This document shows, piece by piece, positions 3,001-9,000 of a stretch of DNA of 10,438 bases; the first letter of the stretch is position 1; each line of letters starts with the position of its first letter. The position numbers are program-made. The DNA comes from Candidatus Hydrothermales bacterium (GTDB lineage: Bacteria; Hydrothermota; Hydrothermia; Hydrothermales; JAJRUZ01), in contig JBCNUW010000033.1 of NCBI GenBank assembly GCA_039630575.1, positions 1 through 10,438 of the forward strand. The letters run 5' to 3'.

Positions 3001-6000
3001 TAATAAAACTAAATTATGAATTAATGGAGGTAAAAATATGAGCCTAATTAAAACTTTAAATCAGGAAAGAGCAAGCTTTGTACTAGGAAAAGTAAAAAAA
3101 GTGAAGGATAAAGATAAATACAAAAGAAATGCTAGGAAATTGCCCTCACTAATCACTTCCAACGGTCTTATTTTAACGCTTGCCTTTTTTAAATCAAAAG
3201 AAGAGACAAAACCAGTTTATGACACAGTAAATGAATGGTTAAAGAAAAAAGGCTATATTAGAGATGATGCTCTTGAAGAACTTATCAATTCAGATTTTTT
3301 AAAACTTCGTCTTGCAACCATAGAAATTTTAGAATTTGCAAACTGGCTTAAAAGAATTGTTGAAATAGAACTTTAAGTAAAAATGATAAAAAATAAAAAA
3401 ATTCTTGAAGAGTTTGAAAAAAATTTAATAAAAAATACTCCCAGTGATTTTGAAAAGAACTTCAAAATTTTTGAAGAAATGAGGGAGCTTGCTTTTAATT
3501 TAGGTAAATTACCACCCAATAACTTACTTGAAGGTATTGAAATTGACATAAAATATGCAAGTGTAATAAATGGGATTAAAAGAATTAATTAAGAATATAA
3601 GTAAAGAGCTGAATAAAAAAAATATAAATTATATGATAATCGGGGGACAGGCATTGTTAATCTATGGTGAACCACGATTAACTAAAGATATTGATATCAC
3701 TTTAGGAATAGGAGTTGAAAGATATGAAGAGATTAAAGAAATTTCTGATAATTTAGGTTTAAAAATTATTCCCAAAAATTATATTGATTTTTTAAAAAAA
3801 ACAATGGTCTTACCAGTACTGGATGAAAAAACCGGTATAAGAATAGATTTTATCTTTTCTTTCTCAGAATATGAAAAAGAGGCACTTAAAAGAGTAAATA
3901 AGATTAAAATTGACGAAGTTCAAATCTTCTATGCTTCTATTGAAGATTTAATTATCCATAAAATTGTTTCGGGAAGAGAAAGAGACCTTGAAGATGTAAA
4001 ATCAATTCTTTTAAAAAATAAAGAAGTTGATGAAAAGTATATCTTAAAATGGCTTAAAGAATTTGAAAAAATTTTAAATGAAAAATTAATAGAAAGATTT
4101 AAAAAATTAAAAGGTGAAATAAATTAGAAAAAATGGCTGAAATAAGAGGAATGATTTGGTTTGGTAATTCGGTTATAAGAAAGGAAATAATAGTAAAAAG
4201 TGAGAACATAAGAAAAGCTGAACAAAGTTTTTTTGAAAAATTAAAAGAAGAAATTGGGAAAAGTAAAATTGAAAATTTTAATCTTTTTATAAATAAATAT
4301 GTTCCAATAATTGATGCAGAAATAAAAAGTAACGGAAAAAAACAATTTTTCAGTTTAAAAACACAAAGTATCGGTGGAGAAAGCAAAAAACATTTTTATG
4401 AAGGATTATTAGAAAAATTTACTTTTAGTATACCTCTTAATTTTCAGAATACCATTAACTCACAAAAAGAGTCTTTAAGGAAACAGGGTTTTAATGTTAT
4501 TTTTTCTGATTCTTTAAAAACTTATACTCGTTTAATCATTGGACTTGGCTCTGCTCATGTTCTCGAAACTTCAATTACTCTACATCATATTTATGGAATT
4601 CCCTATATTCCAGCAAGCGCTATAAAAGGAGTTTGTAGAATGGCTGCATATTTTAAGATTGCAAAAAATAAGAATATTTTAGAAAATGAAAGTAAATTAG
4701 AAAACTTGCAAAAAGAATTTTATGGTGAACTATCCTTTGATGAAGATATTCTTAAATACCAACTTCTTTTTGGTGCTATGAATTTTAAGGGACTTTTACT
4801 TTTTTTGGATGCTTATCCAGAGATTAGAAATAATCATGAAGCCTTTAATTTATTTGATTTAGATATCATGAATGTTCATTATCAAAAGTACTATGGAGAT
4901 GAAAAAGGTAAAATACTACCTGGTGATTGGGAATATCCAAATCCGATAACATTTTTAACTTTAAAAAAAGGAATTAGATTTAATTTTATTATTTTATTTG
5001 ATGAATTTAGGGCTAAAAAACTTTTAGAAATGGAAGACGAAAAATTTAAAAACTTGAAGATACCTCAGAATGCCAAAGAGTTGATTAATAGTTTTAAAGA
5101 AAATGATTTTAGAGATTTAAAAGAGGAAGTTAAAGATTTATTAGAAGATGCTTTAAAAAATCTTGGTGTTGGTGCAAAAACAAGATTAGGCTATGGAATC
5201 TTAGAATAATTTTTTAAAAAAAAGAGGTGTGATATGAAAGGCACAAAGAAAGGGGGGAAGAAGCTCCCAATAAAGGTTTACAATTTAGGTAGTGCTGCAG
5301 GCAAGTGTCTGGATTTTACTCGTGAGAAAATCTACTTAAGAATGGATGCGTCTATGGGAGTAAAAGCAGTCTCTATTCCTGTTTTCTTAGTAAATGAAGC
5401 ACAGATGGATGAAATTTATCCCCCTGAAAGACGCCGTGCCCTTGACCCTGAAAGAGTTCATGAGTGGGTATGGAGACAAAAAGAAAGGAAAATGGACGAA
5501 TATGAAGACCCACTTAGAAGGCTGGAAGATGATGAAAAGAGTTGGGAGCGTTACATCGTCATAGTAGCTACCGGTCTTTATCTATCTAAACATACATATA
5601 ATGCTCAGCGAGTTATCGCCCTGGCTGATGAAGAATATCTTTCTGAAGAATCAAGGGAAGTTTTTTTAAATTTAAAAGAACCAGCTATTTTTCTCTGTCC
5701 TAAACGCATCGTTGACTGGGCAAATAGAGAAAATATAAGAGTGGATCTTGTTTTGGATAAGGTTTATTATCATGAACTTGGACACGCCCTCATGGATAGT
5801 GGAAATACTCCGTATGACACAATTTGGGGACGAACCATAGAAGAGAGCTTAGCCAACTGGGTAGCATATGATAAATTTAAAGGTTCCGAGGCTCGTTTAA
5901 TTCAATATCTTATCAAAAGTGAACCAGCAGAGTATCAAGGATATGCATGGTTAAGTGAGGCGATAAACCCTCTTATTATCTCCGTACTCATTTATTCTCC

Positions 6001-9000
6001 TTATATTTCTCGCTGGGAATGGGAAGAATTTTATTACGAATGGCGCCGCCTTTTTCATCGGTATTTTAGGAAAGGTTTTCCTTTTCCTCCTTGGTTTAGG
6101 AGTGTGAAGATATTAGAAGAAACGATAATACACGCTTGGATTGAATTTAAAAAGAACCATTTTTATAATAAAAACGAAGTGGGATTGGGATGGAAAGAAT
6201 TTGCAAGAAAATTACTGGAGAGAGTCTGAACTTGTGAAAGTTATTAAAATAAAAAATCTTGTTTAATGTGGAGGAAGTTTTATGAAAATTTTAATTTCTA
6301 CATGGGGAAATCCTTTAAATTGGAATATAGTGAAATATAAATATAAAAAAAGTGAAAAAGAAATTGAAGACCCTTTACCTTTAATAAAAGAAGAAGAAAA
6401 AATAGATAAAATAATAATTATTTCTTTAGACACTCTTGCAGATGAGAAAATAGGTACACTTACACATATTTGCTATAATGGACTTAAAAAGCAAGCAGAA
6501 AGAATAATTGAAAATTTCTGTATAGCAAAATTAAACTGCCCTCCTGATAAAATAATTATTTCTTATGGTGTAGGGGAATTTAACAAAACAAAATTTATTG
6601 GAAACGCAATGGACTATTATTACTCAATTTTTAAAGAATTATCCCTTACATTAAAAGAATGGCTTGAAAGTTCATCTTCTCAAAAGCTTAAAATATTTTT
6701 AGATATAAGTCATGGAATAAATTTTTTACCAGTTTTAACTTATCGTGCTTTGAGAGAAGTCTTACAGATATTAGCATATAGTTTTGAAATAGAACTTACT
6801 GTACTAAATTCCGATACCTACATAAGAAGTGCAAAACCATCACAATTAAATGTTAATGTAATTGAGAAAATTAAAATTCTTCCTAAGTTAACTGTATATT
6901 ATTCTAACCAAAAAATCATTAAACCTTTTACTCATTTAAAAGAGAAGGAAAAACAAAAAATAGGCAAGGATTTATTTACTCAATCATTAGAACTTCCTGA
7001 TGAAATTTTTTGTTTTCTCTCTTCTTACATATATGCCTTACCCGTTTTTGTGACTAGTTATATGCCTAGTTATAACACTCTAAAAGCTATAATTGATAAA
7101 ATCTCAAAAGTATTTGAACGCTATATCTCAATAGATCATACTTCGGCTTGTAAAATAAAAATTATAAGAAACACAGAGTTTACCATTAATTTTGAAAATT
7201 TAATAAAAGCCTTTCTGGTGTCCTGGTTATTAAGTTCAAAGTGTTTTGGTCGGCAAAAGGATATTTCTTTGAAGAAAATTAAATATTTAAATGAGAATAT
7301 CTGGAGAAATAAATTTCCAGTAGAATCTAATAGAATTGATGTAGAAATTCATAAAATTCAAGAGGTAGATGAACTTACAGAGGAATATCAGCCTTATTTT
7401 AAACTTCTTGGTAAAGACGAGGGTAAAAATATTGATAAACGAAACTTCTTTTCACATGCTGGCTTTGAACATAATGTAATTCAAATAAAAAAAGAAATTA
7501 TAATCACAATAAATCCTAATTATGAAGACGAAGCAAAAAAACTTTTAAAAGATAATTTACCAAGGAGTGAGCTATGAGTGATTATAGACTTAAACTTAAA
7601 GCCTTGCTTCATGATCCGATTGATAAACAATTTGTAATTTGGAAATTAAAGAAAAAGCATGAAGAAGTAGCAAGGGAATATTTGAATTTTCTTTTATATG
7701 GTGAAACTATTCATGAAGAGGAAATAAAATTGGCTGATCAAATTGCTTCTGCAATTAGTAGAATAATTGTTGTACCAGAGGAAGAGAGCCTAAAAAAGAT
7801 ATTGGATGAAAAAACAAAATTTGAATGGGAAGAAATAAAATTCATTGATATTTTTTCCTTAAGATCTCAAAAGGCAGGAATGCCAGATAACGAAGAGGAA
7901 GTTAGAAAAAAATTTAAAAAATTGGGTGATTTAAAATTTAACACTTCTGATGAAAGAGTTAAAGTATATTTCCTTTTTCTCTGGAGATTCCTACCAGAAA
8001 TCTTTCCATGGATAAACACTCATCCTGCTGATTCAAGGGCACCAAATCATTCTATATATGACCATCTTGTGCAAACATCAGCAATTGCTTCCAGCTTACC
8101 AAAACCAACCTTTTTGCTCTTTACAATAGCACCGGTTCAAGAATATATAAGCACTTCAAGAAAAACAAGTGACTTATGGTCAGGTAGTTATATCCTTTCT
8201 TATTTAATCTATAAAGCTACTACAGTAATTTTAGATGAGTTAGGTCCAGATAATATTATTTATCCAAATTTATTAAAACAACCACTTGTTGATAGATGGT
8301 TATATGAAAAATTTAAAAATACACAAATATTAGATATCTTCAAAGATGAAGAATACTTTAAAAAATTTATTGATAATGCCCTCTTAGAGGAAAATTTAAC
8401 AATTGCAAACTTTCCGAACAGATTTCTCGCAATTATACCCTTTGAAATAGCAAAGGATATTGCTGAGAAATGCAAAGAAAAGATATTGAAAGAGTTTGAA
8501 AATTTTACTAATAAGTTAGATAAAATAAATGAAATTAAAGAAGCTGAATTAAAAAAAGAAACTAAAGAAAAAATCTTAAAACATTTAAAAAACTATTTTC
8601 AGATTTATTATGTCTATCTTCCATGGCTTAATGATAGCTATACTGATATTCAGACAATTTTAGATGAATATATAGATTTAGTTGGTGTAAATGAAAGATA
8701 TAAGATCATAGATATCATAAAAAAACATTCTTATTATAAACCAACAACAGTTGGCACTGCATATTCACTTTTAGTTGAACTTGTTGAAAAATTTTTGGCT
8801 TCAAGAAAGATGTATAGAAAATATGAGGATATAGGAGAGCAAAAGGGTGAAAAGTGCCATTTATGTGGGAATTATGATATTTTACCAATAAAATGGGATA
8901 AATTACCAAGATGGATTGTAAGGGAAAGAGAAAGACTTTGTGGTGTTTGTTTCATAAAAAGGGTTTTTCCCTCCATATTAAAAGATATTTTAAATTTTAG

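Follow-up and report, generated by a model that had tools for sequence, protein, structure and literature searches.

The window, i.e., the whole 10,438-nt stretch of Candidatus Hydrothermales DNA analyzed here, carries a complete type III-B operon whose order, according to Pfam and NCBIfam, is cmr3-cmr4-cmr1-cmr5-orf69-DUF6036-cmr6-zincin gene-csx1-cas10 (Table 1). As described in the survey's finding, an unnamed zincin gene separates cmr6 from csx1 in a complete Cmr operon, and CRISPR repeats lie at both contig ends; both points were confirmed. The 69-aa ORF and the DUF6036 gene form a pair that recurs in related operons, and csx1 is, judging from its sequence, the recognizable cyclic oligoadenylate (cOA) effector of this operon. 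A Logan contig, from a run that may be the source sample itself, covers positions 4215 to 8137 with zero differences from this locus, ruling out a misassembled gene order. No joint skipping the zincin gene was found in Logan contigs, which drop rare variants. A promoter scan stayed at chance level (2 found versus 5 expected). Terminator-like signals numbered 4 versus 0.8 expected, all within the zincin gene.

Table 1. Features of the type III-B locus and of the zincin gene in the window
Feature	Position	Strand	Remarks
End of another CRISPR array	1..81	+	One partial and one full repeat
cmr3	224..1282	+	TIGR01888
cmr4	1285..2169	+	TIGR02580
cmr1	2166..3041	+	TIGR01894
cmr5	3038..3376	+	TIGR01881
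69-aa ORF, partner of DUF6036 gene	3383..3592	+	No Pfam/NCBIfam family over cut-off
DUF6036 nucleotidyltransferase	3570..4127	+	PF19502, 1.3e-12
cmr6	4133..5209	+	TIGR01898
Swapped block	5207..6268	+	DNA similarity to same-genus operon ends at 5206 and restarts at 6269
Unnamed gluzincin-type metallopeptidase gene (predicted)	5234..6229	+	331 aa, ATG start, single domain
HExxH motif (H180, E181, H184)	5771..5785	+	Predicted Zn ligands and general base
E203-E204	5840..5845	+	E204, predicted third Zn ligand, 20 residues past H184
csx1 (CARF-HEPN)	6282..7577	+	TIGR01897, PF22230, PF09455
cas10/cmr2 with GGDD motif	7574..10111	+	TIGR02577; GGDD from translation
CRISPR array start	10196..10422	+	Four 29-nt repeats, period 65-68

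As previously reported, the 331-aa zincin has no Pfam or NCBIfam match, here at E ≤ 1, and it matched no PADLOC family over the cut-off. The 190 homologous clusters noted before were recovered at E ≤ 1e-3, with a Pfam row in 0 of the 120 listed, and the family amounts to 446 clusters at 50% identity (E ≤ 0.001). In a broad alignment, H180, E181, H184, and E204 were invariant in 84/84 rows, as claimed, whereas E203, also said to be invariant, was present in 82/84; the pattern HExxH...[ED]E[SAGT] was matched by 161 of 170 rows. Further conserved motifs are D59, P63, G114-x-Y116, C155-x-x-R158, P231-x-E233-Y234, and W302. In the AF2 model (pLDDT 86.1, pTM 0.86), HExxH sits on a helix spanning residues 170 to 186 and E204 on a helix spanning residues 197 to 212. 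A VIA-wide structure search with this model bore out the confident zincin fold proposed earlier, the best match being DPP III (Z 8.7, a middling score; rmsd 4.9, 194 aligned), followed by LTA4H (Z 8.2), a cold aminopeptidase (8.1), and YbeY (8.0). Nearly all 50 listed matches were, by title, HExxH peptidases or their relatives, and the matches covered residues 8 to 331 as one zincin-like body. The fold is also common to non-proteases, among them YbeY and HExxH oxygenases in the same search. Foldseek returned nothing at E ≤ 0.001 against PDB and BFVD, and the zincin profile aligned the E204 region weakly (E 0.41) with the NES glutamate of the M1 peptidase TriF3. The maximal 19-residue hydropathy is 1.3, with no transmembrane stretch, and no CARF or SAVED domain was recognized with Pfam or PADLOC, as also noted before. 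An HExxH on a helix, a Glu ligand on the next helix, and a zincin fold are the features of the gluzincin superfamily, and the protein is thus predicted to be a soluble zinc metallopeptidase from an as yet unnamed family of gluzincins with an intact, conserved HExxH+E signature. This supports the earlier view of an undescribed zincin family; no paper describing it was found in the literature searched. In the ESM Atlas, only unnamed clusters scored above 0.9, with named leads under this bar (HicA-, WG-repeat-, and LRR/DpnI-containing clusters, Zincin_2, DA1-like, and DUF2201_N). When Csx1 and the zincin were modeled as a complex, the ipSAE values were 0.00 and 0.00, which yield no verdict and count neither way.

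The GC content of the zincin gene (0.388) and its GC3 (0.316) fall at the 99.6th and 99.8th percentiles, respectively, of 1,210 genome ORFs. The corresponding slot of a same-genus operon is about 296 bp long and encodes Csx3 (PADLOC, 4.5e-35). By tblastn, csx3 is absent from the genome studied here, and an APE2256 homolog lies on another of its contigs (C30). None of four same-genus genomes carries the zincin; the nearest relatives (50 to 57% identity) belong to other phyla and adjoin SNF2-PLD/Eco57I genes or other non-cas genes. The zincin gene here is a recent foreign insert into the accessory slot after cmr6 and, judging from sequence relationships, this copy is not of common descent with the other Cmr-linked copies. 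What the locus mainly shows is that the position after cmr6 is an exchangeable cassette slot.

Homologs within cas operons were found in 5 of 49 dereplicated homolog groups, the other 44 lying outside; with four groups in III-B and one in I-A, the family is not predominantly type III-linked. These five groups are 27 to 34% identical to the zincin of this locus, and the cas-operon loci, this one included, number six (III-B, L022/L135, L133, L134, and L139; I-A, L023). At L023, the homolog sits between cas7 and cas5; type I-A systems are not known to make cOA. At L133 and L134, the homologs stand at the operon head, and at the WOR-3 locus L022/L135 the order is cmr6-APE2256-zincin-CARF_TM-csx1-cas10; the zincin therefore coexists with Csx3 at L134 and with APE2256 at L135. 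The latter locus corresponds to the second WOR-3 case cited in the survey, which is real, but its zincin is only 31% identical and falls in another subclade. Since the four III-B homologs and the present copy do not form one clade (AU p 1.8e-65), the family has made its way into cas operons on two or three occasions. One WOR-3 subclade has been kept with Cmr genes across two families at 34 to 43% identity, at an operon position that varies (the operon head or after APE2256). Of the seven WOR-3 genomes in which a copy is credible, five carry it amid cmr genes; only 4 of 32 Cas10-positive WOR-3 genomes carry a zincin in the Cmr cluster, leaving 28 without. A Thermoflavifilum homolog with housekeeping neighbors falls inside the Cmr-linked subclade (support 86/93). 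A BLAST search of neighbors against this window's Cas proteins matched in only 1/103 loci, an undercount of cas-linked loci, because it missed the I-A locus. Cas-operon loci are commoner than the survey knew from its 1/24 related loci with cas genes.

A defense gene (restriction, CRISPR, or other) lay within 3.5 kb of the gene center in 20 of the 49 groups when one locus was taken per group, and in 21 if any member counts, a strict defense neighbor being absent in 28. The control gave one such gene in 20 random 7-kb windows (Fisher p 0.003, overstated because kin among the homolog groups are not independent). The defense-gene reference set was drawn from neighbors of zincin loci, but the control windows were searched with the whole of Pfam as well. 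The defense partners include restriction and modification genes (GmrSD, type ISP RM, type I RM, Eco57I-type MTase, and type II MTase) and others (SNF2-PLD, Schlafen, LeoABC-like dynamins, trypsin-HerA-McrBC, AbiE, and type III-B and I-A cas); they are unrelated and interchangeable, a pattern that fits a self-sufficient gene. Whole clades remain in constant housekeeping surroundings (Bacteroidota thiolase/YceI, Armatimonadota ComEC, and WOR-3 aspS). Of 110 representatives scanned, 3 are fusions of the zincin with EVE (two of them over the cut-off), and the EVE survey does not mention an EVE-peptidase fusion in its main text. The single-sequence fold of one fusion, P0224, had a pLDDT of 35, too low for use.

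Presence of the gene is patchy, phylum searches giving 8/272, 6/178, 12/201, 4/201, 2/38, 1/7, and 1/151, some matches being weak; we took G196, G693, G723, and most of the Chitinophagales rows, at E > 1e-7, for other zincins and left them uncounted. Five Thermus megaplasmids carry the gene, which adjoins toxin-antitoxin genes in 3/3 regions examined, with transposases in 2/3, and several family copies are split or decayed. One member comes, by its name, from Clostridium sp., a name that suggests mesophily, and the family probably extends beyond the thermophiles to which it had been assigned. No curated-looking PADLOC match was obtained in 35 members scanned (sole row, E 0.002). Among viral contigs, 50 pattern matches yielded 0 confirmed relatives, with none in annotated phages, and a single match among 8,000 longer candidates scored is weak evidence that the zincin hardly ever occurs inside large multidomain proteins. 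A 349-aa gene upstream in Armatimonadota was rejected as a zincin paralog (hhalign probability 0.4).

We judge the chances evenly balanced that the zincin is a mobile stand-alone defense metallopeptidase, belonging to an undescribed family and expressed together with Cmr but not under its control. A free-standing defense gene seems likelier than a dedicated CRISPR partner because its relatives lie mostly near other antivirus genes or in ordinary places. The gene would move horizontally as single-gene cargo of defense islands and integrative elements; separated from its neighbors by gaps of 24 and 52 nt and equipped with its own ribosome-binding sites, it is probably co-transcribed with the Cmr operon and would thus borrow the operon's expression. 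The enzyme would act alone in a Lit-like manner, staying latent until a phage-derived cue appears and then cutting a host or phage protein so that infection is stopped. In view of the EVE fusions, this cue could be a protein or a foreign or modified nucleic acid; the zincin would be neither activated by cOA nor part of the Cmr complex. Enrichment near defense genes, the EVE fusions, patchy presence, the Thermus megaplasmids, relatives in other phyla, and split copies speak for a stand-alone defense role, whereas the groups without a strict defense neighbor, the clades stable in housekeeping settings, the drawing of the defense-gene reference set from zincin neighbors, the lack of a PADLOC model match, the occurrence of the fold in non-proteases, and the long retention of a WOR-3 subclade with Cmr, which a pure passenger need not show, speak against it.

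Alternatively, and in our view rather unlikely, the gene could be a passenger, that is, a mobile housekeeping or stress protease (acting, for example, on DNA-protein crosslinks or in protein turnover) that ends up at insertion hot spots, defense islands included, and has no immune role. Such a gene would readily account for the 28 groups lacking a strict defense neighbor, the clades in housekeeping contexts, the recent foreign insertion here, and the decayed copies, but less well for the enrichment of 20/49 over 1/20 random windows, the clean insertion into the cas operons of separate lineages, and the EVE fusions. The survey had read the gene as recruited to type III CRISPR immunity as an accessory protease, whose role would be either to process one of the Cas or effector proteins or, lacking CARF and SAVED, to act once Cmr has recognized its target; its usefulness to class 1 systems would explain the repeated recruitment. 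Six cas-operon loci, at least two independent entries into them, and a WOR-3 subclade that stays with Cmr at differing operon positions, with copies among cmr genes in most WOR-3 genomes that have one, are consistent with this idea; most groups and most Cas10-positive WOR-3 genomes lack the association, no neighbor is constant, no CARF or SAVED domain was recognized, the Thermoflavifilum homolog lies within the linked subclade, and the homologs closest to this copy lie outside cas loci. We therefore consider it improbable. Presence within cas operons, by two or three entries, is supported, and a dedicated partnership with Cmr is not supported, one copy being in a I-A operon; the reading as a "Cmr accessory protease" is only weakly supported. 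It is equally doubtful that the family forms a sensor-less class of CRISPR-Cas accessory proteases, recruited at least twice to III-B and once to I-A, that would work independently of cOA through the class 1 effector complex or effectors, with other members serving restriction systems likewise.

A regulator similar to CapP/IrrE, i.e., a peptidase that DNA damage activates and that, by cleaving a repressor, switches on whichever defense operon is adjacent, would explain the many defense partners and the operon-head position at L133/L134, and CapP with CapH is described as regulating many immune operons (PMC13228613). Peptidase_M78 was matched in one representative (E 0.005, under the cut-off), but no HTH repressor gene recurs within three genes among ORFs of ≥70 aa and the zincin gene is mid-operon here, making such a role quite unlikely. 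A zincin-fold phosphodiesterase, either a YbeY-like RNase or a new ring nuclease functionally replacing Csx3, seems highly improbable: the gene occupies the csx3 slot in a genome without csx3, and YbeY ties with the top structural matches, but the zincin retains the catalytic Glu and has Glu as its third ligand, where YbeY has three His, homologs coexist with Csx3 and APE2256, contig C30 carries an APE2256 homolog, and most homologs have no type III system nearby. Two ring nucleases are reported in only about 4% of ring-nuclease loci, and any ring nuclease in only 34% of Csx1 loci (PMC12409355).

The zincin is a concrete candidate for a single-gene anti-phage metalloprotease, from a family without a Pfam, NCBIfam, or PADLOC model over the cut-off, and the Thermus thermophilus megaplasmid copies (WP_014630469.1 and WP_143591869.1) allow a native test. 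Should the repeated entry into cas operons prove functional, a metalloprotease would join the type III proteases, for which the surveys consulted name Lon, caspase/CHAT, aspartic, and AB-hydrolase types.

Among known systems, gluzincins (M1 catalytic domain, M4 thermolysin, and M49 DPP III) share with the zincin the HExxH helix, a Glu ligand about 20 residues on, and the overall fold (Z 8.7 to 6.0, rmsd 3.8 to 5.7, 7 to 15% identity), whereas the family consists of stand-alone proteins of about 280 to 400 aa with motifs of their own and no Pfam or NCBIfam membership. M1 aminopeptidases are multidomain proteins with HExxH-x18-E and GxMEN motifs; the 331-aa zincin has an x19 spacing (which varies in the family), no GxMEN in its alignments, and no M1 beta-domains. 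M49 DPP III carries a six-residue HExxGH motif, unlike the five-residue HExxH of all aligned rows, and the three-His H-x3-H-x5-H motif of YbeY contrasts with zincin alignments lacking a third conserved His. CapP/IrrE/ImmA (Peptidase_M78) are likewise HExxH...E zincins near diverse immune operons, but the family has much larger helical additions, no recurring CapH-like HTH partner (ORFs of ≥70 aa), and an M78 match in only 1/110 representatives, under the cut-off, with none for the query. Structures of IrrE, CapP, and Lit are absent from the 50 listed VIA matches, which does not speak against kinship. Zincin-like MPTases of conflict systems (polyvalent proteins and ArdC), described as having an HExxH helix plus a Glu on the next helix (PMC5512222), resemble the family in both this arrangement and the mobile-element setting; unlike them, the zincin is, on weak evidence, almost never found in large multidomain proteins, nor in the phage collections searched. 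CalpL (SAVED-Lon) and SAVED-CHAT, reported to combine a SAVED sensor with a Lon or caspase-family catalytic domain (PMC11229360 and PMC12669027), are also protease genes, as predicted here, in type III operons with a GGDD Cas10. The zincin differs in having neither a SAVED/CARF sensor nor a Lon, caspase, or CHAT domain, and its family lies mostly outside CRISPR loci. Lit of E. coli e14 is an HExxH enzyme as well. Although no Lit-family Pfam match was found in the query or the 110 representatives, and no PADLOC row, the zincin may by analogy resemble Lit as a single-gene protease on mobile DNA, Lit being described as activated by the T4 Gol peptide and cleaving EF-Tu (PMC9712102).

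The zincin gene sits where the survey had placed it, between cmr6 and csx1-cas10/cmr2 of a type III-B operon, and as claimed its product has no Pfam or NCBIfam match at E<=1. Naming the neighbors with Pfam and NCBIfam gave the order cmr3, cmr4, cmr1, cmr5, an unnamed 69-aa ORF, a DUF6036 nucleotidyltransferase gene, cmr6, zincin, csx1, and cas10/cmr2; the CRISPR repeats at both contig ends were also recovered. Spacers of 24 nt (cmr6 side) and 52 nt (csx1 side) flank the gene, and a purine-rich ribosome-binding site is present in each; co-transcription with the Cmr operon is therefore likely. 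One Logan contig, which may come from the source sample, spans 4215-8137 with zero differences. A terminator-like hairpin and a 10/12 sigma-70-like site (6068-6088 and 6141-6169) lie near the end of the zincin gene, upstream of csx1; promoter-like sites occurred at chance level. The 69-aa ORF and DUF6036 pair, also present in loci L139, L141, L142, L242, and L243, recurs in several WOR-3 families, 3′ of cmr5 in their Cmr operons, and is commoner there than the zincin. It resembles a toxin-antitoxin module that has become a resident of the operon; the L142 and L242 copies are truncated.

The zincin family is real and undescribed, and a credible candidate defense protease. A word-index search reproduced the 190 homologous clusters reported previously, and searching 1.84 billion representatives with a profile returned 446 clusters at E<=0.001, of which 209 reach 1e-10 and 81 reach 1e-30. 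The survey had called HExxH and EE invariant; in an 84-row alignment (identity down to 23%), this holds for H180, E181, H184, and E204, but not for E203, which, like D59, G114, R158, Y234, and W302, is conserved in 82-83 rows. None of the 84 rows matched NCBIfam at E<=0.01, Pfam gave only sub-threshold metallopeptidase hints on 110 of 144 new representatives (DUF4344 four times, M78 and DA1-like once each), and PADLOC matched none of 35 members save one row at E 0.002. In the AF2 model (pLDDT 86.1, pTM 0.86), the helix with HExxH spans residues 170-186 and the one with E204 spans 197-212. The top VIA-wide structures were tied at a middling score (Z ~8), i.e., DPP III (Z 8.7, rmsd 4.9, 194 aligned), LTA4 hydrolase (8.2), M1 aminopeptidase (8.1), and YbeY (8.0); nearly all of 50 rows were, by title, HExxH peptidases or relatives, non-proteolytic ones included. 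Against the M1 peptidase TriF3, the family profile pairs HExxH with HExxH and its EES segment with NES, but the match is weak (E 0.41). Since conserved residues, model, structural matches, and TriF3 alignment agree, and the site fits the zincin MPTase definition of PMC5512222, a gluzincin-type active site is well supported; that the protein is proteolytic we infer. It has no transmembrane stretch. Some homologs (P0187, P0145, P0182, and P0139) carry extra domains of 140-500 aa that were not recognized, placed at the N-terminus, internally, or at the C-terminus. Many copies are split or interrupted by transposons (L014, L015, L016, L024/L136, L071, and L163/L168), and L104 holds two tandem copies of ~455 aa each.

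Neighborhoods were drawn from 23 genome loci, the best 80 of 134 metagenome loci, and wider regions from phylum searches. Dereplication at 85% gave 63 locus groups, of which 14 with <3 kb of flank, including our own locus, were dropped; the count of the remaining 49 omits fragments <170 aa and two later-fetched Chitinophagales loci. A strict defense gene lay <=3.5 kb from the zincin gene center in 21/49 groups (20/49 with one locus per group); a defense, toxin-antitoxin, mobile-element, or candidate nuclease gene was nearby in 36, and none of these in 13. Among 20 random 7-kb windows from six family-carrying genomes, one held a defense gene (cas2) and one a toxin-antitoxin gene, an enrichment (Fisher p 0.003) that is overstated, as kin are non-independent and the reference set was drawn from these very neighbors. 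The partners are of many kinds: GmrSD, type I and ISP RM, Eco57I, SNF2-PLD, Schlafen, MkoA-like helicase, LeoABC-like dynamins, trypsin-HerA-McrBC, type II MTase, and AbiE. Five Thermus megaplasmids carry the family; toxin-antitoxin genes lie nearby in all three regions examined, an MBL hydrolase and transposases adjoin in two, and one copy directly precedes a DUF262 gene. At Thermus-type loci (L084, L090, L175, L178, L180, L192, L193, and others; 14 in one set of loci), an MBL/beta-CASP-like hydrolase gene directly 5′ of the zincin forms a conserved pair, possibly a two-gene system, followed by a variable defense gene.

Cas genes were found near the zincin in 7/49 groups and around it, within cas operons, in five, whose homologs are 27-34% identical to the query. 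The second WOR-3 locus (L022/L135) had been taken as recurrence of the same Cmr link. An AU test on 38 rows rejected a single clade for the five Cmr-linked proteins (p 1.8e-65, a log-likelihood drop of 178; group defined before that tree, after a FastTree run), and this locus is therefore a separate entry without shared ancestry. The archaeal L023, on a long branch, may represent a third. Across two families, the other four WOR-3 Cmr-linked zincins share 34-43% identity (67% inside a single family), and their Cmr4 proteins 49-69%; this suggests long residence with Cmr in the subclade, although a Thermoflavifilum copy without cas neighbors nests within it. Cas10/Cmr2 occurs in 32/272 WOR-3 genomes, 4 of which have a zincin among cmr genes; one genome (G055) has two Cmr operons and its zincin elsewhere.

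Loci compared with the zincin operon
Feature	Position	Strand	Description
Zincin ORF	5234-6229	+	331 aa
69-aa ORF and DUF6036 pair	3383-4127		unnamed ORF plus nucleotidyltransferase gene
csx3	L141:1655-2011; L142:5358-5714		between cmr6 and csx1 of two III-B operons, same-genus genome
Second III-B cluster	L235, own genome, contig C30		cas10-cmr3-CARF_RelE-cmr4-cmr5-cmr6-APE2256; truncated at contig ends
L133			zincin-cmr3-cmr4
L134			zincin-cmr3-cmr4-cmr5-cmr6-csx3-CARF_TM-cas10-csx1-cmr1
L022/L135			inside cas operon (APE2256-zincin-CARF-TM)
L139			zincin inside cas operon
L023	588-4873		csa5-cas7-zincin-cas5-cas8a, archaeal type I-A operon; zincin inserted between cas7 and cas5
L171	1273-8488		Aquificota island: trypsin-like protease, HerA, McrB, and McrC divergent from zincin; WYL gene downstream

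The zincin came into this Cmr operon by a recent cassette swap. Its GC (0.388) and GC3 (0.316) stand at the 99.6th and 99.8th percentiles of the genome's 1210 long ORFs, the GC3 of the other nine operon genes being 0.15-0.22, and the family is absent from all four same-genus genomes. One of these, G050, has two related III-B operons with csx3 in this position and differing csx1 genes; DNA similarity to the closer one ends at 5206 and restarts at 6269. Three other WOR-3 operons have nothing after cmr6, and others have csx3, a CARF-TM gene, or APE2256-zincin-CARF-TM there; because contents differ, this place is an exchangeable slot. Our genome has no csx3; its second III-B cluster carries CARF-RelE and APE2256 genes. 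In the tree, the zincin groups with Fervidibacter and Calescibacterium homologs (50-55% identity, support 99/96), and the Fervidibacter copies lie 3′ of an AAA+PolB fusion gene and mostly 5′ of SNF2-PLD and Eco57I-type genes.

Found next to many unrelated defense systems and obligatory in none, the zincin gene is therefore best read as self-sufficient. That it is a passenger or non-defense peptidase is distinctly less probable than a defense role of its own; for it speak the Bacteroidota, Armatimonadota, and some WOR-3 copies, stable among housekeeping genes, which count against a defense link. A CRISPR accessory, as the survey had proposed, is unlikely: the link to cas operons is real but optional, no sensor domain or fixed partner was seen, and a dedicated Cmr role is possible but not favored. 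A CapP-like regulator, as described in PMC13228613, appears slightly less likely still, and a nuclease or ring nuclease very improbable. EVE domains, found by Pfam on P0197, P0224, and weakly P0252 (3/110 representatives scanned, distant from this copy), suggest that modified nucleic acid is what is sensed, since EVE serves modification-dependent nucleases as specificity domain according to PMC7641849, a survey in whose main text "peptidase" does not appear.

No paper on the family was found among titles and abstract openings of the literature searched. In the accessible portions of PMC12669027, 10.1101/270033, PMC11229360, and PMC6546367, the proteases listed for type III loci are of the caspase/CHAT, Lon, aspartic, and AB-hydrolase types, and "metallo" does not occur in the peptidase sense; their supplementary tables of CRISPR-linked genes could hold members as unnamed clusters. 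The metalloprotease-like fold of the Tiamat preprint lacks HExxH and was ruled out as a member. For the self-sufficient zincin, we see an about even chance that it would be held latent in the cytoplasm as a Zn protease until a phage cue triggers it to cut a host or phage protein, a mode of action modeled on Lit as described in PMC9712102.
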